From Methanocaldococcus jannaschii DSM 2661 (GTDB taxonomy: Archaea; AGJL01; Methanococci; Methanococcales; Methanocaldococcaceae), in contig NC_000909.1 in the NCBI RefSeq assembly GCF_000091665.1, positions 1,404,118 to 1,436,117 on the forward strand: a stretch of 32,000 nt of DNA, written 5' to 3'. The position numbers and the translations under genes are program-made. How positions within the stretch are numbered: position 1 is the first letter of the stretch; every line of letters begins with the position of its first letter. Positions 2,410 through 31,296 of this stretch are shown here, piece after piece. The notes under the pieces are model-generated. The model ran no database searches. It worked only from the letters and a program-made list of their open reading frames with translations, and had not been told where the DNA came from.

Positions 2410-2428
2410 AATGATTAGAGGGAGGATT

Positions 2429-3034
2429 ATGAGAAAATTCCTAATACTATCTATGTTAATCTTCACAACTCTATGTGGCTGTGTTGATTTCTCATCCTCT
2501 AATTCTAACGGTTATTATCATGATAGTTGGAGTTATAATAATTACACTTCTTTTGTAGATACTCATGAACACTACTACGGAAAGGTTGTTAAGGTTGTAG
2601 ATGGAGACACTGTTTATGTTGAAGTTAATGGGGAATTATGGAAGATTAGGCTTTTAGGGGTAGATACTCCAGAAATTCACAAGAGAAACAACCCGTATGA
2701 ATATTATTTATTAAATGGAACACCGATAACAGATACAAAATACTTAAAAGAATGGGGCTATAAAGCTAAGCATTTTGCAGAAAAAGAACTTAAAAATAAA
2801 ACAGTTATAATTGTCTTTGATAATGAAGCCCCAAAGAAAGATAAATATGGGAGATATTTAGCATACATCTTTATAAATAATAGTAATAATTTAATAAACT
2901 TCAATGAAGAGCTTTTAAAGTATGGATATGCAAGGGTTTATATAAGTAATTTTGAGTTAAAGGATGAATTCTTAAATGTTGAGAGGGAAGCTAAAGAAAA
3001 TAGAGTGGGTTTATGGAATTGGAGCAATAACTAA
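2429..3034 (+). CDS. Secreted/lipoprotein staphylococcal-nuclease (thermonuclease)-like nuclease
   Basis: Signal peptide ending in lipobox-like LCGC. SNase hallmarks VVDGDTV, RLLGVDTPE, GRYLAYI, EREAKENRVGLW. The ATG at 2429 follows GAGGGAGG; the listed ORF starts at 2411. Confidence 0.85.
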   Translation: MRKFLILSMLIFTTLCGCVDFSSSNSNGYYHDSWSYNNYTSFVDTHEHYYGKVVKVVDGDTVYVEVNGELWKIRLLGVDTPEIHKRNNPYEYYLLNGTPITDTKYLKEWGYKAKHFAEKELKNKTVIIVFDNEAPKKDKYGRYLAYIFINNSNNLINFNEELLKYGYARVYISNFELKDEFLNVEREAKENRVGLWNWSNN

Positions 3035-3040
3035 GGGGAG

Positions 3041-3193
3041 TTTTATGGAAGGGAGAACTTATGCATTATCATGAACCTTTAATAAAGGTTCATCAAAATG
3101 AGTGGGGCTTCACTTCGTTCAGCTCCACTTTATTTATAGCTACAAAAGTAATGGAGTGATTTTTTATGGAAGGAAAAGCCTATGCATTAGCAT
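3041..3193. repeat. Palindromic repeat element (MJRE-like) flanked by a 32-bp imperfect direct duplication of the aroK SD/start region
   Basis: 3041-3072 vs 3162-3193 are 27/32 identical without gaps. Perfect hairpin ATGAACCTTT-AAT-AAAGGTTCAT at 3071-3093; hairpin AGTGGGGCT-(11 nt)-AGCTCCACT at 3101-3129. Confidence 0.8.
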
Positions 3194-4014
3194 CTGGGAC
3201 AATAATAAACGCTATAGCAACAGGTAAGGGTTCAGCTTTTGGATTAGATTTAAAGGTTTATGCCAAAGTTAAACTTATAGATGATGGAAAAAACAAAATA
3301 GAGGGTAAAGTTTTAGATAATCCAAACATTAAGCCAAATTTAATAGTAAGATGTGTCAAAAATACTTTAGATTATTTTGGGCTGAATTACTCTGCCTATG
3401 TTGAAACAAAGACAGAAATTCCTATAAAATCTGGATTGAGTAGTAGTTCAGCCACTTCTAACGCAGTTGTTTTGGCAACATTTGATGCATTAGGGGAAAA
3501 AATAGATGATGAGCTAATATTAAATTTAGGGATAAAATCAAGTTTTGATGAAAAATTAACTGTTACTGGAGCTTATGATGATGCTACTGCATCATACTAT
3601 GGGGGAATAACAATAACTGACAATATAGAAAGAAAAATTTTAAAAAGAGATAAGATGAGAGATGATTTAAACGTCTTAATATTAATTCCAAATTTAGAAA
3701 AGAATGTTGATGTAAATAGAATGAAGCTAATAAAGGATTATGTTGAAATTGCCTTTAATGAGGCTATAAATGGAAACTATTTCAAAGCTTTATTTTTAAA
3801 TGGAATTCTTTATGCATCAGCTTTAAACTTTCCAACAAACATAGCAATAGACGCATTAGATGCTGGGGCAATAACAGCCGGTTTATCTGGAACAGGTCCA
3901 AGTTATATAGCCATGGTTGAAGATGAAAATGTTGAAAAGGTAAAAGAAAAATTAAATAGGTATGGAAAGGTTATTTTAACTAAACCAAACAATGATGGAG
4001 CTTCTATTTACTAA
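3166..4014 (+). CDS. aroK: Archaeal GHMP-family shikimate kinase
   Basis: GHMP kinase phosphate-binding motif [11 protein letters not shown]. Length and sequence match the non-orthologous archaeal shikimate kinase first identified in M. jannaschii. Confidence 0.9.
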
Positions 4015-4158
4015 TTTTAATTTTTTATTTTTTATGAAATTTATCATGATTTTTAATGACAAATTATAAATACTAAAATTGTAATAATGTAGTAATAAAA
4101 TCTACAAAAAATTAGCACTAAAGTAGTTATTATAAGTTATTAATATTACGGTGGTGTT

Positions 4159-7100
4159 ATGAAAATCACATTTTATATGTGGGCATCTTATTGCTCAATA
4201 TTAAAAAAGGCGTTGGATGAGCTTAAAAAAGAAGGAGTAGATGTTGAATATAAAATATATTCTAACAGAAATCCAATTGATGATGAGTTTTTAGAGGATG
4301 CAAAAGATTATGATTTAGTTTTTATTTATAGAACATCATCAGATGATATTGATTTAGAGAAGATAAAGAAGTTCAATGAAAACGTTATAGTTGTTGCCCA
4401 AGACCCAAACTTTTGGAATTCTGAAAAATCTGCTAAATGTTATTTATTTATAACTTATGGAGGTTTAGATAACTTCAAAAATATGGTTTTATATCTAATG
4501 GGTAAAGATAAAGATGTTGTAAAGCATCCATTCCAAGGTATCTATTATAGAGGCAAAATTTATGAAGAATTAGAAGAATTTTTAAAAGACGTTGAGTTTA
4601 ATAAAAAATATACGGTGGGGATTTTATTCTCAAGGCATTATTTAGTTAATGATGATATGGATGTTATTGAGAAGCTATTAAATAGATTGGACAAAGAATT
4701 CAATGTAATTCCAGTATTTTCCTATGGAGCTAAGTGTGAGGATTTAAATGCCTTAGGTAGTGGAGAGAGTGTTTTAAAATACTTCCTTAAAGATGATAAG
4801 CCAATAATAGACGCCTTAATCAATCTACTGTCATTTCCATTGGGAACTGTAAAAGATAAGGCTAATTTAAACAAAATCTCTGGAGTAGAGATACTTAAAA
4901 AGTTAGATGTGCCAGTATTTCATCCAATAATGAGTTATTATAAAAGCTATGAGGATTGGAAAAAAGATGAGCAAGGTTTATCTGCAGATATTGGTTGGAC
5001 TATAGCCTTGCCAGAGTTTGAAGGGGTTATAGAACCGATTATCATTGGAACTACTGAAAATGAGAACGGCTTAGAGAAGAAGTTTGGTATTGAGGAAAGG
5101 ATAGACAAAGTTGTTAGAAGAATAAAGAGATGGATTGAGCTAAAATACAAACCTAAGAAAGATAGAAAGGTTATATTTATATTGCATAACAATGCATGTG
5201 CATCTGTTGAGGCAACTGTGGGAAGTGCTGCCCATTTAGACAGCTTTCAAAGTGTTATAAACATAATGAAGAAGTTGAAGGAAGAGGGCTACTATGTAGA
5301 AAATATTCCAGAAAATGGAGAGGAGTTAGCTCAGCTAATTATGCAGAAGAAGGCAATTTCAGAGTTTAGATGGACTACCGTAAATGAGATTATAGCTAAA
5401 GGAGGATATCTATACTTAATGGATGAAGAAGAGTATTATGAATACTTCAACACACTGCCAGAGAATGTAAAAAATAAAATTTTAGAAACATGGGGAGATT
5501 TAAATGGTAAAGACATCCCAGCAGGAATGATTTATAAAGTTAATGGAAAAAATAAGATAGTTATAACTGGTTTAAAGTTTGGGAATGTCTATGTTTGTGT
5601 TCAACCAAAAAGAGGATGTGCTGGGGCAAGATGTGATGGAAGAGTTTGTAAGATATTACACGACCCTTATTGCCCACCAACTCATCAATATATAGCATCA
5701 TATAAATATTTTAATGACATTGCTGACATAATAATCCACGTTGGTACTCATGGAACTTTGGAATTTTTACCTGGAAAAAACGTTGGTTTATCTAACGAAT
5801 GCTATCCAGACATCTGTATTGGAGATATTCCTCATCTCTATATTTATAATTCAGATAATCCACCAGAGGGAACTATAGCAAAGAGAAGAAGCTATGCAAC
5901 TATTATTGATCACATGCAAACAGTTATGGTTGATGCATTTTATGAAGAGTTGGAGACATTAGATAGCTATATAGAGGAGTATTTAAAGGAGATGGATGCT
6001 TCAAGAAGGCATCAGTTAGAGCATTTGATAGTTGAGGAAGTTAAAAAAACCAATTTATTGAAAATTAAAGAAAAAATTGAGAAGATTGAAAAAGAAGGGA
6101 AAATCCATGAGAACTTTAAAGAGATATTTGATGAGCTAAGAGATATCTTAGAGATGATAAAGAACTCGAAGTGCAATGATGGAATGCATATCTTTGGAGA
6201 ACTTCCAAGTGGAGAGAAGAGAGTTGAGTTTATAAAGAGTATTTTAGAGGCGATATTCATCCAGAATAATACTATGAATAGTAAAAGGAGAGGCATTGCC
6301 GAGCGAAGCGAGGCAATGCATCCGGGGTATCCCAATAGGGGGCTTCCCCCTATGGAGTTTGAGTATAAAGATAAAAACCTAAAGAAGAAAGTTTCAGATG
6401 TATTAAATGGAAAGAGTATAGAAGATAAAAAATTAGAGGAGAAGATTAAGGATATCAATGAGAGAATTGAAAAATCAGATGAGATTGGCTCTTTGTTGAG
6501 AGGCATTGATGCCAAATATATAGAGCCAGGGCCTTCTGGGCTGATAACAAGAGGAAACTATGATATCTTACCAACAGGAAGGAACTTTTACTCATTAGAC
6601 CCATACCGAATTCCTACGAAATCTGCTTATAGAGTAGGGGTTTTATTAGCTGAAAAATTAATTAATAGATATTTAGAGGAGGAGGGAAGGTATCCTGAAA
6701 ACATAGCTCTATATTGGATGGCATCTGATATAATGTGGGCTGATGGGGAAGGAATGGGGATGATTTTATATCTATTGGGTGTTAAGCCAGTTTATAGAGG
6801 AGGGAGAGTTGTTGGCTTAGAAGTTATTCCATTGGAGGAGTTGGGAAGACCAAGGATTGATGTAACCATTAGAGTTAGTGGAATAACAAGGGATATGTTC
6901 CCAAACTGCATAGAGCTTGTTGATGAGGCAATAATGAAAGTTGCTAACTTAGATGAGCCATTGGAGATGAACTTTGTAAAGAAGCATGTTGTTGAGAACT
7001 TAAATAAAGGCCTATCATTTAGAGAATCAACATTTAGAATCTTCTGCTCTCCTCCTGGCACTTATGGAAATGGTGTTAAATATGCAGTGTATGCAAGTGC

Positions 7101-10822: not shown

Positions 10823-11596
10823 ATGGAAAAACCAGTTATATGTAGAATAAAAGAAATAATAGAAGAAAGCCCAACAGTAAAAACATTTGTAGTAGATAAA
10901 GATTTTGATTTTAAGCCGGGACAGTTTGCAATGCTTTGGCTTCCGGGAGTTGATGAAAAACCATTTGGATTTTCTTCTAAAAATAGTTTTAGTGTTGCAA
11001 GAGTTGGAGAATTTACCAAAAAAATGCATGAACTAAAAGAAGGAGATATAATAGGAGTTAGAGGGCCTTATGGAACATATTTTGAGCCAATAGGAGATAA
11101 GGTTTTGGCAGTTGCTGGAGGTATTGGAGCTGCACCAATTATAACAGCAGTTGAAGAATTTTCAAAGCAGGGAATTGAAATAACAACCATATTAGGGGCG
11201 AGAACTAAAGAAGAGTTATTATTTTTGGATAGATTTGAAAAAGTTAGCAGATTAGAGATTTGCACAGATGATGGTAGTTTTGGATTTAAAGGTTTTACAA
11301 CTGAAAAAATGAAAGAAGTCCTTAAAGAAGAGAAATTTGATTTAATTATAACTTGTGGGCCAGAAATAATGATGAAAAAGGTTGTAGAAATAGCAAATGA
11401 ATATAATATTCCAGTTCAGGTTTCAATGGAGAGGTATATGAAGTGTGGTATAGGTATTTGTGGGCAGTGTTGTGTAGATGATGAGGGACTTTGTGTTTGT
11501 AAGGATGGGCCAGTATTTTGGGGAGATAAGTTGAAATTTATTAGAGAATTTGGGAAGTATAAGAGAGATGCAAGCGGTAAGAAGATTTATTATTAA
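10823..11596 (+). CDS. pyrK: PyrK-type FAD/NAD-binding, [2Fe-2S] electron-transfer subunit (dihydroorotate dehydrogenase B partner-like)
   Basis: Ferredoxin-reductase-type FAD/NAD module (AGGIGAAPI) plus C-terminal cluster CGIGICGQCC..C..C. Size (257 aa) fits PyrK. Confidence 0.7.
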   Translation: MEKPVICRIKEIIEESPTVKTFVVDKDFDFKPGQFAMLWLPGVDEKPFGFSSKNSFSVARVGEFTKKMHELKEGDIIGVRGPYGTYFEPIGDKVLAVAGGIGAAPIITAVEEFSKQGIEITTILGARTKEELLFLDRFEKVSRLEICTDDGSFGFKGFTTEKMKEVLKEEKFDLIITCGPEIMMKKVVEIANEYNIPVQVSMERYMKCGIGICGQCCVDDEGLCVCKDGPVFWGDKLKFIREFGKYKRDASGKKIYY

Positions 11597-11682
11597 CATT
11601 ATAAGGTATTGATATTTAGTTTTGATCAACCTTTTCTAAAAAGGTTGTTCGGGGAGTATATAGAGATGCGAGTGGAAAATTG
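11549..11682. repeat. Palindromic element flanked by a ~34-bp direct duplication of the pyrK 3' end (right copy frameshifted relic)
   Basis: 11549-11583 vs 11648-11681 align with one 1-nt indel. Both encode ..RDASGK... Hairpin CAACCTTTT-CTA-AAAAGGTTG at 11627-11647. Confidence 0.7.
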
Positions 11683-11717: not shown

Positions 11718-12863
11718 ATGATAAAATTTGGAGAAGCAGTTTTGGGAAATGAAATTAAGGCAATAGTTAATGTTGCATTAGGGAAAGGAGAGTTAATTGA
11801 GAATACCTTTACAAATGCTTTAACAAGAGGAAATTGTGTTTTTGCCAATTTAAGACCTAATTTAATAGTTAAACCATTAACCTTAGTTGTTCCAAGGCAT
11901 AATATAGAGAGTGAGATACAGGATGAGCTATTTCAGGGAGTTATTCAGTATGCAGTTGCCAAGGCAGTTGCTGATTTAGATTTAGATGAAGATTTAAAGG
12001 TTGTTGTCTCTGTTAATGTCCCAGAGGTTCCAATAACCAATTTAAATAAAAGAAAACTCTTCCAATACTTCTATGCCTCAGCAAAGTTAGCTATAAACAG
12101 AGCTTTAAATGAATATCCTTCAAAAGAGAAGGTAAAGAAAGAGAAATATAGAGCTTTGCATCCATTAGTTGGATTTAGGGATGTTAGATTGGAGTATCCT
12201 CCATATCTACAAATTGCTTTGGATGTCCCAACTATGGAGAATTTGGAATTTTTGTTACAAACAATTCCAAATAGCGACCACATCATCTTAGAGGCTGGAA
12301 CACCACTAATTAAAAAGTTTGGTTTAGAGGTTATTGAAATAATGAGAGAATATTTTGATGGCTTTATTGTTGCTGATTTAAAAACCTTAGACACTGGAAG
12401 GGTTGAGGTAAGATTGGCATTTGAAGCAACAGCTAATGCAGTGGCAATAAGTGGAGTAGCACCAAAATCAACAATAATTAAAGCTATCCACGAATGTCAA
12501 AAATGTGGTTTAATCAGCTATTTGGATATGATGAACGTCTCTGAACCTCAAAAATTATATGATTCATTAAAATTAAAGCCAGATGTTGTTATCTTGCATA
12601 GAGGGATTGATGAGGAGACATTTGGAATTAAAAAGGAATGGAAATTTAAGGAAAACTGCTTATTAGCAATTGCTGGAGGAGTTGGTGTGGAGAATGTTGA
12701 AGAGCTTTTAAAAGAATATCAAATATTAATCGTTGGTAGAGCAATTACAAAATCAAAAGACCCAGGAAGAGTAATTAGGATGTTTATAAACAAGATGGGT
12801 TATGATATAGACACTTATAGGCTTTATTTTGATGAGGATGAGGATATAGGGGAGGAATTATGA
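11718..12863 (+). CDS. fae-hps: Bifunctional formaldehyde-activating enzyme / 3-hexulose-6-phosphate synthase (Fae-Hps)
   Basis: N-terminal Fae-like domain fused to an OMP-decarboxylase-fold HPS domain (LQIALD, ADLKTLDTG, IAGGVG). 381 aa as in the characterised M. jannaschii fusion. Confidence 0.9.
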   Translation: MIKFGEAVLGNEIKAIVNVALGKGELIENTFTNALTRGNCVFANLRPNLIVKPLTLVVPRHNIESEIQDELFQGVIQYAVAKAVADLDLDEDLKVVVSVNVPEVPITNLNKRKLFQYFYASAKLAINRALNEYPSKEKVKKEKYRALHPLVGFRDVRLEYPPYLQIALDVPTMENLEFLLQTIPNSDHIILEAGTPLIKKFGLEVIEIMREYFDGFIVADLKTLDTGRVEVRLAFEATANAVAISGVAPKSTIIKAIHECQKCGLISYLDMMNVSEPQKLYDSLKLKPDVVILHRGIDEETFGIKKEWKFKENCLLAIAGGVGVENVEELLKEYQILIVGRAITKSKDPGRVIRMFINKMGYDIDTYRLYFDEDEDIGEEL

Positions 12864-19854: not shown

Positions 19855-20508
19855 ATCCATTAGTCTCCAGATTTCTTTTAATGTATCAATATCAACCTGC
19901 CCAGGGGCAGAACTTTTCCCTTTATATGAAGCAAACGTTAATATTGAGCCAAAATAAACCCCTAAGATTCTTGTTAGTTTCCCTTTCTCGCCCATTCCAA
20001 TACCAATAATCTTTCCAGGATATTTATTTATCACTTCTAAGATATTGAGGACATCTTCTTTACTATTTGCCATTGTTGCAAATTTTGCTATATCTCCAAT
20101 GCTAAGAGCTTTTTCAACAATCTCTACCAATTTTTCCTTAGAAGGAGTTTTTTCAAAATCATGATAAGAAATTATAATTTTTGTTTTTGAACCAATTTCA
20201 TCTCTAAATTTTACAAGTTCTTTATTTTTCTCCTCTCTCAATTCAATATCAACAAATTTGGCATTGCATTCAATTGCCTTTTTTATTAAGTTTAATCTTT
20301 CCTCATTATTTCCCTTCCAATAACCACCCTCCCAATCTGCTCTAACAGTTATTATGCAAGGATACTTAGCAAATTTCTCTATATCTTCTTCACTAACTTC
20401 TTTAAGCATATCTATCCTAAATTCAACAATATCTGCTATTTCTAAATACTTTTCAGCTGTTTTTATTGCTTTTTCTACACTATCTTCAACTACTGGCAAA
20501 CATATCAT
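19846..20508 (-). CDS. aroD: 3-dehydroquinate dehydratase, type I
   Basis: 220 aa. EFRID motif, [10 protein letters not shown] region and conserved Lys-containing segment typical of type I DHQase. 9-nt convergent overlap with the upstream + strand gene. Confidence 0.9.
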
Positions 20509-23364: not shown

Positions 23365-24021
23365 ATGGAAATTGGAATCAGCATAGAGGCAGAAAATAAA
23401 GTAGGAGTTTTGCACAAACTTACGGGAATTCTTTCTGAATTGGGAGGGAATATAACCTATACTCAACAATTCATTAAAGATGATGGTAAAATTGGATTTA
23501 TTTATATGGAAGTTGAAGGGATTAAAGATATTGAGGAGCTAAAGAGAAGAATGGAGAGTTGTGAGTGTGTAAAGAGCTTTGAAATTCACAGCTCATTAAA
23601 AAAGATTTATGGTAAGAGAGTTATTATTATTGGTGGAGGGGCACAAGTTGCTGAAGTTGCGAGAGGGGCGATAAGTGAGGCAGACAGGCATAATATAAGA
23701 GGGGAGAGAATTAGCGTAGATACTCTTCCAATAGTTGGTGAAGAAAATTTATATGAGGCTGTTAAAGCTGTAGCAACTCTTCCACGAGTAGGAATTTTAG
23801 TTTTAGCTGGCTCTTTAATGGGAGGGAAGATAACTGAAGCAGTTAAAGAATTAAAGGAAAAGACTGGCATTCCCGTGATAAGCTTAAAGATGTTTGGCTC
23901 TGTTCCTAAGGTTGCTGATTTGGTTGTTGGAGACCCATTGCAGGCAGGGGTTTTAGCTGTTATGGCTATTGCTGAAACAGCAAAATTTGATATAAATAAG
24001 GTTAAAGGTAGGGTGCTATAA
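23365..24021 (+). CDS. ACT-domain protein with a C-terminal conserved domain of unknown function
   Basis: N-terminal ACT-like segment (ENKVGVLHKLTGILSELGGNI). The C-terminal 130 aa are Gly/Ala/Val-rich (IIIGGGAQVAE...). Confidence 0.7.
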   Translation: MEIGISIEAENKVGVLHKLTGILSELGGNITYTQQFIKDDGKIGFIYMEVEGIKDIEELKRRMESCECVKSFEIHSSLKKIYGKRVIIIGGGAQVAEVARGAISEADRHNIRGERISVDTLPIVGEENLYEAVKAVATLPRVGILVLAGSLMGGKITEAVKELKEKTGIPVISLKMFGSVPKVADLVVGDPLQAGVLAVMAIAETAKFDINKVKGRVL

Positions 24022-24162
24022 AGATAATTTAATAATTTTTGATGAAACCGAAGCGTTAGCTTTGGGTTATGAAACTCCATGATTTTCATTTAATTTTTTC
24101 CTATTAATTTTCTCCTAAAAAGTTTCTTTAACATAAATAAGGTTAAAGGGAGAGCTCTATGA
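23992..24162. repeat. Palindromic element (24022-24132) flanked by a 30-bp direct duplication of the ACT-gene end / ade start junction
   Basis: 23992-24021 vs 24133-24162 are 25/30 identical ungapped (first 17 identical). Both read INKVKGR(V/A)L-stop. Nested hairpins at 24046-24068 and 24069-24089. Confidence 0.85.
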
Positions 24163-25829
24163 TTGTCTTCAAAAATACAAAGATTATTGATGTATATACT
24201 GGAGAGGTTGTTAAAGGAAATGTTGCAGTTGAGAGGGATAAAATATCCTTTGTGGATTTAAATGATGAAATTGATAAGATAATTGAAAAAATAAAGGAGG
24301 ATGTTAAAGTTATTGACTTAAAAGGAAAATATTTATCTCCAACATTTATAGATGGGCATATACATATAGAATCTTCCCATCTCATCCCATCAGAGTTTGA
24401 GAAATTTGTATTAAAAAGCGGAGTTAGCAAAGTAGTTATAGACCCGCATGAAATAGCAAATATTGCTGGAAAAGAAGGAATTTTGTTTATGTTGAATGAT
24501 GCCAAAATTTTAGATGTCTATGTTATGCTTCCTTCCTGTGTTCCAGCTACAAACTTAGAAACAAGTGGAGCTGAGATTACAGCAGAGAATATTGAAGAAC
24601 TCATTCTTTTAGATAATGTCTTAGGTTTAGGAGAGGTTATGAACTATCCTGCAGTAATAAATGAAGATGAAGAGATGTTAAAAAAGATAGAAGTAGCTAA
24701 AAAATACAATAAATTGATAGATGGGCATTGTCCAAAATTAAAAGGTTGGGAGTTAAACAAATATATATCTCATGGAATAATGAGCGACCATGAGAGTGTT
24801 GATGAAGATGAGGCATTAGAAAAGCTTAGATTGGGATTAAAATTAATGATTAGAGAAGGAACAGCATCAAAAAACATCTATTTGCTTAATATATGCAAAA
24901 AGATAAAAGATTTTAGGAATATAATGTTGGTTAGTGATGACGTCTGTATTAAAGATTTAGACGGCTACATGTTAAATATTTTAAGAAAAGCCACAAACTA
25001 TGTTTCTCCAATTGAAGCTATTCAAATGGTTACAATAAATCCAGCAAATTATTTTGGGTTTGATGTAGGAATTAAAGCTGGAAATGAGGCAAGTTTTGTA
25101 ATCTTTGAAGATTTAGACAATTTTAAAGTTTATAACATTGTCATAAAAGGAAGATTCTTAGATGATGTTTTAAATGAACTAAATAAAAATAAAAAAAGAA
25201 AAATTCCCGAAAAGCTCATGAATACTTTAAAATACCAATACAAAAACGAAGGTGATTTTTTAATTAAAGGGATTGATTATAAGGAGAGAGATGGATTTAT
25301 TAGAGTAATAAAACCATTAAAAGATTCTCTAATAACTGAAGAGCTAATATTTAGCACTGAAGAAATAAAAATATTACTGAATGAAAATGCTATAAATAAA
25401 ATCTTCGTTATAGAGAGGCATAAAAATACTGGAAATATTGGAAAGGGTTTAATATACAACTTCTTGGAGGAGGGAGCTTTAGCCTCTTCCTATGCTCACG
25501 ATTCTCATAATGTAATAGCCATAGGAAATAATGAGAAAGATTTAGCCTTAGCTGTAAATAAATTAAAAGATATTGGTGGAGGATTTATAGCTGCTAAGGA
25601 TGGGGAAGTTGTTGAATATCTTCCTCTACCAGTTGGAGGGATAATGGGAGATGATGGAAAATACATAGCTGAGAAGATTAATGCTTTGTATAAAAAAATA
25701 GAAGGTTGGAGTTCTTTTGAGAACCCATTTTTAAGTATGAGCTTTTTCTCTCTCCCTGTGATTCCTGAGCTAAAAATAACTGATAAAGGTTTGGTTAAAG
25801 ATATGCAGTTGGTTGATTTATTTATTTAG
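24159..25829 (+). CDS. ade: Adenine deaminase
   Basis: Amidohydrolase metal site [20 protein letters not shown], and the two-domain 556-aa architecture of adenine deaminase. Confidence 0.9.
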
Positions 25830-30078: not shown

Positions 30079-31296
30079 TTATAACTCTTTCAAAATTCTT
30101 TTTAAAACATTCATATCACATTCAATCTTTATCGGCTCTTCACTTGCCCTTATAGCTGCATCTGGGTCTTTCAACCCATGCCCTGTTGTTATACAAACAA
30201 TTCTTTCATCTCTATCAATAATTCCTTCTTCTAATAACTTTTTAAGCCCAGCTATTGATGAAGCTGAAGCTGGTTCAACAAAAATTCCCTCTTTTCTTGC
30301 CAATAGCTTTTGAGCTTCAACAATCTCTTCATCAGTAACTGCTTCAGCATAACCTCCAGAGGAGTATATGGCATCTAAAGCCTTTGGGGCATTTACTGGA
30401 TTTCCAATCCTTATAGCTGTTGCAATTGTCTCTGGATTTTTATATGGGATGATGTCTTTAGCTCTCTTTCTAAATGCTTCAACAATTGGCTTAGCTCCAT
30501 CTGCCTGAATTCCGGTCATTTTTGGGAGTTCATCTATAATGCCAGTAATTTCAAATTCTTTAAATCCTTTCCATATAGCTGAGATGTTTCCAGCATTTCC
30601 AACTGGAACAATAACTCTATCTGGGACTTGCCAGTTTAATTGGTCACATATTTCAAATGCTATGGTTTTCTGTCCCTCTAATCTAAATGGATTTATTGAA
30701 TTTAATAAATAAATCAACTTCTCTTTTGCTAATTGTTTAACCATATCTAATGCATCATCAAAGTTCCCTTTGACTTGAATAACCTTAGCTCCATAGAACA
30801 TTGCTTGAGCTAACTTTCCTAAGGCAACTTTTCCTTCTGGTAATAGAACAATACATTTCTTTCCACTTCTTGCTGAGTAAGCGGCTAAAGAAGCGGATGT
30901 ATTTCCTGTTGAAGCACAGCCAACAACCTCAACACCCAACTCATTTGCCCTTGTTACTCCAACAGTCATCCCCCTATCTTTAAAGCTTCCAGTTGGATTA
31001 GCCCCTTCATTTTTTACATAGAGTTCTTTAATTCCAAGCTCTTTTTCCAAGTTGTTACATCTATATAATGGAGTTCCTCCTTCACATAGACTTACAATTT
31101 TACTTTCGTCTTTTACTGGTAAGTATTCCAAATATCTCCAGACTCCAATTTCTCTCTTTCTTAGTTTTTCTTCTGAAACTTTATCTTTAATCTCTTCATA
31201 ATCATAAATAATCTCCAATAAGCCACCACATTCGCAGGTGTAGATTATCTCATCCACATCGTAAGTTTTTCCACATTTAATACATCTTTGTAACAT
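30079..31296 (-). CDS. thrC: Threonine synthase
   Basis: PLP-Lys motif NPTGSFKDRG, N-terminal Zn-ribbon (CIKCGK...CECGG), 405 aa. GAGGTGG SD upstream. Confidence 0.95.
   Translation of the reverse strand: MLQRCIKCGKTYDVDEIIYTCECGGLLEIIYDYEEIKDKVSEEKLRKREIGVWRYLEYLPVKDESKIVSLCEGGTPLYRCNNLEKELGIKELYVKNEGANPTGSFKDRGMTVGVTRANELGVEVVGCASTGNTSASLAAYSARSGKKCIVLLPEGKVALGKLAQAMFYGAKVIQVKGNFDDALDMVKQLAKEKLIYLLNSINPFRLEGQKTIAFEICDQLNWQVPDRVIVPVGNAGNISAIWKGFKEFEITGIIDELPKMTGIQADGAKPIVEAFRKRAKDIIPYKNPETIATAIRIGNPVNAPKALDAIYSSGGYAEAVTDEEIVEAQKLLARKEGIFVEPASASSIAGLKKLLEEGIIDRDERIVCITTGHGLKDPDAAIRASEEPIKIECDMNVLKRILKEL

Follow-up and report, generated by a model that had tools for sequence, protein, structure and literature searches.

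How does the start of one gene come to be present twice, 121 nt apart, in front of a single coding sequence? The question is raised by the spacer between the nuclease gene MJ1439 and the shikimate kinase gene aroK (MJ1440) of Methanocaldococcus jannaschii DSM 2661. The spacer lies near the beginning of a stretch of 32,000 nt of contig NC_000909.1 (1,404,118 to 1,436,117), called "the window" below, whose first letter is position 1. An initial annotation had interpreted the upstream copy as a decayed aroK start, separated from the functional start by an inserted two-hairpin element. The full reading favored here, with a probability of about 0.55, is that the spacer is a lineage-restricted allele in which an insertion or a template switch has split the junction between the two genes.

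The duplicated start of aroK

The repeat search identified a 32-nt direct repeat with a period of 121 nt, 27/32 (84%) of whose positions are identical (3041-3072 and 3162-3193), in agreement with the coordinates and sequences initially annotated. Smith-Waterman local alignment does not extend the match without gaps. The initial annotation had stated beforehand that a match no better than shuffled controls would speak against its reading. The controls were 12 dinucleotide-type shuffles covering the whole window: with +1/-2 scoring, the best direct repeat per shuffle at an offset of 20-300 nt scores 12-15, and the aroK pair scores 17. The repeat exceeds chance even across the whole 32-kb window.

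The right copy is the true start of aroK, as had been proposed, because all orthologues begin with MEG[KRNSE]AYALAS and are collinear with the N-terminus of the protein read from it. The left copy has the Shine-Dalgarno (SD)-like GGGGAG, the ATG at 3045, the nine codons and the TGA ascribed to it. The ATG is situated 10 nt past the nuclease stop, the ninth codon is TCA (3069-3071), and the TGA (3072-3074) lies within the 5' arm of the first of two hairpins (hairpin 1). Some gene callers lengthen this relic to an open reading frame (ORF) of 32 aa, 2976-3074.

A comparison of the spacer among related species, which the initial annotation had proposed, covered the junctions of 16 other Methanocaldococcus-group genomes and metagenome-assembled genomes. 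The aroK ATG is found 13 nt past the nuclease stop in M. bathoardescens and L001 (TAA-AGAGGATGATTTT-ATG in both), 12 nt past it in M. fervens, 10 nt in L019-L023, about 5 nt in L017/L018 and 26-30 nt in sp. 10A and sp. 16A, and in M. villosus the start overlaps the nuclease gene. M. vulcanius and L005 have an unrelated spacer of 60-68 nt, and in L006 the upstream gene is not the nuclease gene. The M. jannaschii-type architecture occurs in FS406-22 and a related yet different architecture in sp. 28A. The insert-free single junctions of the close relatives M. bathoardescens, M. fervens, 10A, 16A, L001 and L017-L023 represent empty sites. The left copy is the displaced original start, because it occupies the ancestral aroK start position of these single-copy relatives, and the description of it as a decayed copy of the gene start is thereby borne out. 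None of the compared genomes has the two copies without the insert, or the insert without the two copies; wherever one is present (M. jannaschii, FS406-22 and 28A), so is the other. This supports the insertion-associated duplication proposed initially as essentially right.

In FS406-22 the nuclease stop is followed by GGGGATAACTT, a 9-codon relic (MEGNAYALS) with its TGA, hairpin 1, TCAAAAT, hairpin 2, TTTATTTAT, an SD sequence and the true start, with a period of 124 nt. In 28A the relic has 23 aroK-derived codons and one more, giving a 24-codon ORF that ends ACC TGA. Hairpin 1 with TCAAAAT, about 16 nt and the true start follow, at a period of 116 nt. Both hairpins claimed for M. jannaschii are present, but they do not constitute one unit as had been supposed, since 28A has hairpin 1 without hairpin 2. 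The feature is not a recent private event, because it is shared by at least two species.

The working SD sequence of aroK is GGAGTGAT (3153-3160), and its GTGAT core is retained in FS406-22 and 28A. Immediately upstream, the right copy (ACAA-AAGTAATG-GAGTGATTTT) aligns with ACAATAACTAAAGAGGATGATTTT of the M. bathoardescens junction at p = 0.04. The equivalent part of 28A aligns with the 10A spacer at p = 0.02 (range 0.02-0.08 versus the native spacer). The M. jannaschii duplication probably reaches upstream to the last nuclease codons, which would bring it to about 51 nt in total and leave about 67 nt of insert; the corresponding lengths in 28A are probably about 100 nt and just about 20 nt. 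The roughly 10 nt of additional upstream similarity noted originally (TAAGGGGAG versus TAATGGAGTGAT) is weakly supported by the M. bathoardescens alignment.

Judged by the identity of flanking genes, FS406-22 is a sister of insert-free M. bathoardescens (aroK 94.7%, compared with 91.3% to M. jannaschii), and 28A is a sister of insert-free 10A and 16A. The distribution of the insert is patchy, because FS406-22 and 28A each have insert-free sisters, and would require repeated loss or lateral spread. Loss could occur easily by recombination between the direct repeats, and spread could occur by homologous recombination. Nucleotides 1-66 of M. jannaschii aroK are nearest to 16A (62/66) and the remainder is nearest to M. 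bathoardescens (91.9%), while in 28A the same 66 nt match 10A at 57 positions (86%) and the remainder at 95.5%. The left copy of M. jannaschii matches the right copy of FS406-22 in 24/27 positions and its own right copy in 22/27, and the reciprocal pattern is also found. These mosaic aroK 5' ends are suggestive of recombination among lineages, short as the compared samples are. Separately, the 28A spacer (2960-2985 of contig L003) has its own small tandem duplication of TAAACAATAAT, missing in the sisters 10A and 16A, so that small duplications recur at the nuclease-aroK junction.

Table 1. Features of the nuclease-aroK junction and related hairpins, in window coordinates
Feature	Position	Strand	Basis or remark
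SNase-like nuclease gene MJ1439, stop TAA 3032-3034	2411-3034	+	ORF; PF00565 on identical M. jannaschii contigs
SD-like GGGGAG and TTTT spacer of left (relic) copy, at the ancestral position of the aroK ribosome-binding site	3035-3044	+	Single-copy relatives: TAA-AGAGGATGATTTT-ATG; FS406-22: GGGGATAACTT
Left repeat copy	3041-3072	+	Repeat search, local alignment, shuffle control
Relic mini-ORF MEGRTYALS and TGA, displaced ancestral aroK start	3045-3074	+	Sequence; FS406-22 counterpart MEGNAYALS and TGA
Hairpin 1, perfect 10-bp palindrome ATGAACCTTT/AAAGGTTCAT, loop AAT	3071-3093		Stem 3071-3080 with 3084-3093
28-nt block, hairpin 1 and TCAAAAT, common to 28A and FS406-22	3072-3099	+	Canonical TTTTGAT-hairpin reading is on the minus strand here
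Hairpin 2, GC-rich (17/29), 9-bp stem with one G.T pair, 11-nt loop	3100-3129	+	Stem 3101-3109 with 3121-3129; in FS406-22, not in 28A
T-rich, TATA-like TTTATTTATAG, directly after hairpin 2	3129-3139		Sequence; FS406-22 counterpart TTTATTTATGG
Right copy, upstream part: degenerate nuclease end, stop and SD (CTACAAAAGTAA TGGAGTGATTTTTT)	3140-3165	+	Alignment to M. bathoardescens junction, p = 0.04
Right repeat copy, with true aroK start	3162-3193	+	Repeat search, orthologue N-termini
Archaeal GHMP-type shikimate kinase gene aroK, MJ1440	3166-4014	+	Exact match AAB99451.1 / Q58835; PF00288
Oligo-T terminator-like tract after aroK (TTTTAATTTTTTATTTTTT), strong	4015-4033	+	Sequence
Hairpin-family member CAACCTTTTCTAAAAAGGTTG with TTTTGAT flank	11620-11647 (palindrome 11627-11647)	+	Perfect-hairpin census; 121-nt spacer between ORFs 10823-11596 and 11718-12863
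Third, divergent family member TTTTGATGAAACC-GAAGC-GTTA-GCTTT-GGGTT	24037-24075	+	Outer AACC...GGTT pairing and flank kept; inner stem different, GC-richer

The insert and its hairpins

On neither strand does the interior between the copies (3073-3149) align locally with aroK or the nuclease gene at a significant level (p = 0.18-0.71), and the same is true of the 28A interior (p = 0.26). Derivation of hairpin 1 from aroK codons 28-34 or 12-16, and of the hairpin 2 region from codons 16-25, was rejected for the same lack of significant similarity. Between the repeats there is no ORF of at least 40 aa, except for one of 41 aa that runs into aroK out of frame. A smaller ORF of 13 codons (MSGASLRSAPLYL) begins at an ATG at 3097 that is present only in M. 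jannaschii and is missing in FS406-22; it crosses hairpin 2 to the TAG of TTTATAG, within 3097-3139.

The whole spacer is 80% identical between M. jannaschii and FS406-22. The core, 3060-3137 (relic end, hairpin 1, TCAAAAT, hairpin 2 and TTTATTTAT), is identical in 72/78 aligned positions (92%), with three additional 1-nt indels, and the two ends of the spacer are about 67% identical. Fourfold-degenerate sites are 66% identical in aroK and 50% in the nuclease gene, and the excess in the core has P = 6e-8. The core would thus seem to be either under purifying selection or exchanged between lineages later than its flanks.

Hairpin 1 is kept in FS406-22, with one extra T:A pair, and in 28A, where a C:G pair is replaced by A:T. 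Perfect stems of at least 9 bp number five in the window and about four per shuffle. Because such stems are common in this AT-rich window, the case for hairpin 1 rests on its conservation across species. Hairpin 2, in turn, is within the top 0.45% of 29-nt windows in G+C, and high G+C is the usual mark of structured RNA in M. jannaschii (PMC2699501). It is also the sole element predicted to be folded at 85 °C, marginally, at -1.5 to -2.1 kcal/mol on extrapolated and therefore rough parameters. In the minimum-free-energy (MFE) fold of the M. jannaschii sequence, pairing between the relic region and the hairpin 2 region takes the place of the two local hairpins (z = -2.9). This pairing does not occur in the FS406-22 fold, and the consensus fold consists of the two local hairpins only. 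An attenuator-like switch is unsupported, because the long-range pairing is confined to the M. jannaschii fold.

No known RNA family was recognized in the insert. Rfam 15 gives no match at gathering score in the window, the best within 2950-3300 having at most 15 bits and E = 0.37 or worse, and scans of the window for tRNA and tmRNA gave nothing. On inspection, a C/D-box sRNA on either strand was rejected, UGAUGA-like boxes being present and CUGA D or D' boxes absent. A selenocysteine insertion sequence (SECIS) was rejected for having neither the GAA/A internal loop nor a selenoprotein context. A supposed likeness of the hairpin 2 minus strand to a segment of 5S rRNA was also discarded, as the Rfam 5S model gives no score.

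Hairpin 1 with its TCAAAA flank appears to be a small motif dispersed in intergenic spacers. The stem at 11627-11647 is that of the FS406-22 version with the closing pair swapped from G:C to C:G, and is inverted relative to the aroK site; the shared flank, TTTTGAT on the plus strand at 11620, is ATCAAAA on the minus strand. Pairwise alignment of hairpin 1 with this site, including the flank, gives p = 0.007, and AACCTTT-N3-7-AAAGGTT matches twice in the window and not at all in 100 shuffles. No flanking duplication was detected at 11620-11647. The pattern TTTTGATSAAMC occurs three times in the window, always intergenically, against 0.07 expected, a statistic that is to be discounted since the pattern was chosen post hoc. 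All three family sites (3071-3099, 11620-11647 and 24037-24075) are situated in intergenic spacers of 121-137 nt. The two plus-strand members start 15 and 23 nt past a stop codon, and the aroK member has the opposite orientation. A search of the window and of 65 kb of related loci with a covariance model of four members yielded no additional copy; its weak matches at 20111-20162, together with a pattern match at 30272, were dismissed because they lie inside coding regions. A degenerate form of the hairpin 1 pattern matches GAAACTTTAAAAAAGTTTCATCAAAA twice in giant-virus contigs of IMG/VR (L025-L027), inverted and 94 nt apart, flanking AT-rich tandem repeats; this was judged to be chance low-complexity similarity.

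The third family member is bracketed by another duplicated junction (23986-24019 and 24127-24160; 28/34 identical, period 141 nt), the sole other direct repeat in the window scoring as high as the aroK pair. Here 23986-24019 is the real 3' end of ORF 23365-24021, comprising its last 11 codons and stop (...FDINKVKGRVL*). The copy at 24127-24160 still reads 11 residues and then a TGA overlapping the ATG of ORF 24159-25829, in what appears to be an ancestral ATGA overlap. The 105-nt interior holds the family member and oligo-T tracts, and has no significant similarity to either flanking gene. The arrangement is a mirror image of the aroK case. Taken as a whole, the two interiors do not resemble each other significantly (p = 0.13-0.17). 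From these two events in one window it might be conjectured that the TTTTGAT-hairpin family of Methanocaldococcus inserts, or is templated, into tight or overlapping gene junctions, duplicating 35-100 bp, splitting coupled genes without damage and creating a regulatory spacer. We consider this doubtful; if true, it would represent a previously undescribed archaeal route of DNA insertion with long target duplications.

Origin of the split junction

In the reading favored here, the ancestral aroK start would have been situated 5-13 nt past the nuclease stop, with the SD sequence in that short gap. A single event would have added about 70 nt of unrelated DNA at the junction and copied about 45-50 nt of the junction itself, from the final nuclease codons through the stop and SD to aroK codon 9. 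Both genes stayed intact because the duplication covers the nuclease end through these nine codons. The upstream copy would have remained at the old site as a 9-codon relic, and the downstream copy, with its strong SD GGAGTGAT, would have become the functional start. The joint might have been formed by a template switch during repair or replication, or by a non-classical insertion, bringing in the palindromic TTTTGAT-hairpin motif. Subsequent movement of the allele among Methanocaldococcus lineages by homologous recombination would explain both the patchy distribution and the mosaic aroK 5' ends. As a result, aroK translation would be uncoupled from the nuclease gene, with a conserved, structured 131-nt spacer between the two. 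Our best guess is that this spacer would serve as an intercistronic RNA 3'-end or partial-termination/pause module, a weak element in which the GC-rich hairpin 2 is followed by UUUAUUUAU, and that the relic ORF probably just absorbs or terminates ribosomes leaving the upstream gene. The insert is a real evolutionary scar and a modest curiosity, with a putative role.

A number of observations weigh against this interpretation. Concerning function, the covariation of hairpin 1 amounts to one compensatory pair and one paired insertion among three sequences and is equalled by 165/500 shuffles. Hairpin 2 has no compensatory change, one substitution improving a G.U pair and another breaking a pair. 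DNA palindromes are, moreover, able to self-correct by templated mutation without selection. For hairpin 1 an unfolded state is predicted at 85 °C (extrapolated parameters, rough), and the core might owe its strong conservation to a newer recombinational transfer and not to selection. Hairpin 2 has a longer loop than the terminator scan accepts and was not flagged by it, UUUAUUUAU is a weak archaeal terminator, and three short Logan contigs cross the nuclease gene, spacer and aroK without a break. Concerning insertion, a repeat search of 2900-3400 found no terminal inverted repeats joining the insert ends, the hairpins being separate, self-contained palindromes, and no transposase or integrase accompanies the insert. 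The duplication varies in length: in M. jannaschii and FS406-22 it covers 9 codons and 32 nt, or probably about 51 nt, and in 28A it covers 23 codons and at least 69 nt. Target duplications of 32-100 bp are not known from any transposition or integration mechanism. No second copy of the interior as a whole turned up in the window, among related loci (about 65 kb) or in plasmid and phage collections, where matches are at chance level only. The 23-mer of hairpin 2, GGGGCTTCACTTCGTTCAGCTCC, has no exact match in viral contigs and one in metagenome contigs, on an unrelated contig. That match (L024 1967-1989, OCVQ010011580.1) closely follows a bacterial-type terminator in an intergenic region of this contig, which is AT-rich and mesophile-looking; by a rough estimate, about 0.01-0.03 such matches would be expected by chance in the metagenome collection.

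The junction might instead have arisen by plain tandem duplication of about 116-124 nt and neutral decay, which we consider possible though not probable. The middle would then be decayed coding sequence from the 5' part of aroK or the 3' part of the nuclease gene, the hairpins would be due to chance or to quasi-palindrome correction, and nothing would be functional. Such an origin would fit the similar periods in the three species, and it has its best case in 28A, where repeat sequence may account for about 100/116 nt, the two copies agree fully in codons 12-23, and the upstream part of the right copy resembles the native spacer. It would also fit the ATGGAA microhomology at aroK codon 1 and at codons 40-41 (120 and 117 nt apart), as well as the number of perfect stems, which are no commoner than in shuffles. 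For the M. jannaschii form, even decay of a tandem unit is disfavored, because no significant similarity of the interior to either gene was detected, while the presumably unconstrained relic codons keep 84% identity. Just 32 nt align at the period, not the head-to-tail whole unit, and a breakpoint at the ATGGAA microhomologies gained no support from the tails of the unit. The core is also conserved far above fourfold sites, and hairpin 1 with its flank recurs at unrelated loci. This recurrence, in three intergenic spacers of one 32-kb window and with junction duplications around two of the three, would be expected of a mobile palindromic element, similar to repetitive extragenic palindromic (REP) sequences, palindrome-associated transposable elements (PATE) or miniature inverted-repeat transposable elements (MITE). 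Such an element, with hairpin 1 and with or without hairpin 2, could have transposed into the aroK 5' end, perhaps independently in the M. jannaschii/FS406-22 and 28A lineages, with an unusually long target duplication each time. Its presence or absence in close genomes, and a relic junction at the same element position (TGAAMC) in three species despite aroK breakpoints at codon 9 versus codon 23, would agree. An origin of this kind is nevertheless unlikely, given the missing terminal inverted repeats and transposase, the long duplications of variable length, the different flank orientation and hairpin position within the insert at the two bracketed loci, the want of significant overall similarity between the two interiors, and the failure of the covariance model to find more copies in the window and 65 kb of related loci.

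A regulatory role of the whole leader is improbable. Translation of the relic as an upstream ORF (uORF) would control either hairpin 2 and its U-rich tract or access to the aroK SD, by an attenuation-like or translational mechanism. With an SD and an ATG of its own, the uORF is equally long in two species. In M. jannaschii, uORFs with a ribosome-binding site are rare (1/232; PMC2699501). The MFE pairing of relic and hairpin 2 region, the complementarity of the hairpin 2 3' arm (CUCCA) to both SD sequences and the conserved core point the same way. Against it stand the absence of the alternative pairing from FS406-22 and from the consensus, the single aromatic codon (Tyr, inherited from aroK) in MEGRTYALS and MEGNAYALS, the faster divergence of the relic codons than of the working copy (6/24 versus 4/24 differences), the prediction for 85 °C of an unfolded hairpin 1 and an only marginally stable hairpin 2, the want of an Rfam match and the independence of archaeal termination from hairpins. 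Most improbable is the scar of an integrative element that carried a replacement aroK start and was later almost entirely deleted, the repeats being its attachment sites attL and attR. Repeats of about 45 bp have the typical length of such sites, overlap a gene end and accompany a retained displaced fragment. Only about 70 nt without an integrase remnant separates them, however, no relative has a larger element at the site, and the repeat length differs between species. There is also no similarity to plasmid or phage collections, and the viral matches are limited to the degenerate hairpin 1 patterns of AT-rich giant-virus contigs that were ascribed to chance.

The feature behaves as an insertion with target duplication, yet it fails the defining tests of an insertion sequence (IS) or MITE, an att scar, a simple tandem repeat and an attenuator. 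With IS-, MITE- or REP-like insertions it shares host direct repeats around a short, hairpin-rich insert, presence or absence among relatives and a motif recurring between genes. Their known duplications, however, are fixed at 2-15 bp, whereas the aroK repeats are 32-100 bp, variable and without terminal inverted repeats or transposase, and few copies are detectable. Like bacterial extragenic palindromes, the motif is an imperfect palindrome of 20-40 nt with a conserved asymmetric flank, outside genes, at three sites; to our knowledge, REP sequences with their associated tyrosine transposases (RAYT) occur only in bacteria. The att sites of integrative elements are comparable in their repeats of about 45 bp that include a gene terminus and leave one functional copy and one displaced fragment, but at aroK there is no element or integrase between the repeats, and their length is not fixed. 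The leader-peptide attenuators, such as the bacterial trp leader, likewise place a short ORF with an SD, then hairpins and a U-rich tract, ahead of an aromatic-pathway gene. They differ in having regulatory codon runs and mutually exclusive pairings, of which the aroK leader has neither in conserved form, and the host here is a hyperthermophilic archaeon with barely stable hairpins and oligo-U termination.

The closest mechanistic analogy is a template-switch duplication with a templated or palindromic insert at the junction. Events of this class, such as fork stalling and template switching (FoSTeS), microhomology-mediated break-induced replication (MMBIR) and quasi-palindrome mutation, likewise give a short duplication, unrelated or inverted sequence at the joint, a junction palindrome and microhomologies (here TTTATGGAA and ATGGAA). 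At aroK the mechanism is only inferred, and switching does not itself explain the conservation of the insert. We know of no demonstration of switching of the FoSTeS/MMBIR type in Methanocaldococcus. Literature searches returned no description of the nuclease-aroK spacer or of such a hairpin family in Methanocaldococcus.

The junction would illustrate that translationally coupled genes can be separated without loss of function, and that what remains of the duplicated junction is a relic start codon that can be dated and a new, conserved spacer. Were the hairpin family and such duplications common genome-wide, they would constitute a mechanism that makes intergenic regulatory space in very compact archaeal genomes, and would explain some of the spurious small ORFs in the M. 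jannaschii annotation, such as the 32-aa ORF already called here. If the aroK case were a one-off, it would be a marker of recombination between Methanocaldococcus species and a natural test case for the effects of uORFs and RNA structure at 85 °C. A genetic system exists for M. jannaschii (PMC6616113).

Gene context and transcription

The MJ1440 product is a GHMP-family kinase of 282 aa. The neighboring genes are all on the plus strand, with cobS (PF02654) upstream of the nuclease gene and cobN (PF02514) downstream of aroK. The cobN ORF contains the longest GC-rich island of the window, 6284-6359 (76 nt in which every 29-nt window has at least 17/29 G+C), for which there is no Rfam match.

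The T-rich sequence after hairpin 2 contains TATTTATA (3131-3138) and TTTATTTA (3129-3136), each of which matches the TATA consensus TWTATATA in 7/8 positions. In M. jannaschii the spacing from TATA to transcription start is 23 +/- 2 nt, and the 134 mapped leaders are all at least 9 nt long, with the SD at +14 to +19 (PMC2699501). An aroK promoter at TTTATTTATAG would initiate at about 3158-3164, giving a leader of 2-8 nt downstream of the conserved SD, in conflict with these leader lengths, and is unlikely. A scan for sigma-70 promoters and terminators is uninformative for an archaeon. The nuclease coding sequence itself (RVYIS) includes, at 2937-2944, a stretch that fits the M. jannaschii TATA consensus perfectly, TTTATATA. 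Situated about 200 nt before aroK, it may be an internal promoter; the match is conserved in relatives because it is coding.

The three Logan contigs (L014-L016) extend from inside cobS (about 1707-1755), across the nuclease gene and spacer, to 16-46 nt past the aroK stop. Their ends are compatible with co-transcription of the nuclease gene and aroK and may reflect a transcript. A literature search found no mention of MJ1440 or of the SRR runs.

The same spacer is present in ten independent M. jannaschii assemblies. Three assemblies derived from ERR97657xx runs (L011 and, by implication, L031 and L032) have a 1-nt deletion in the A-run at 3096-3099, reading AAA for AAAA, which is either a sequencing artifact or a strain polymorphism. 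On L031 and L032 a 345-aa "fusion" protein, P0133, comes from a gene call under a code in which TGA is Trp, and reads across the relic, the spacer and aroK.

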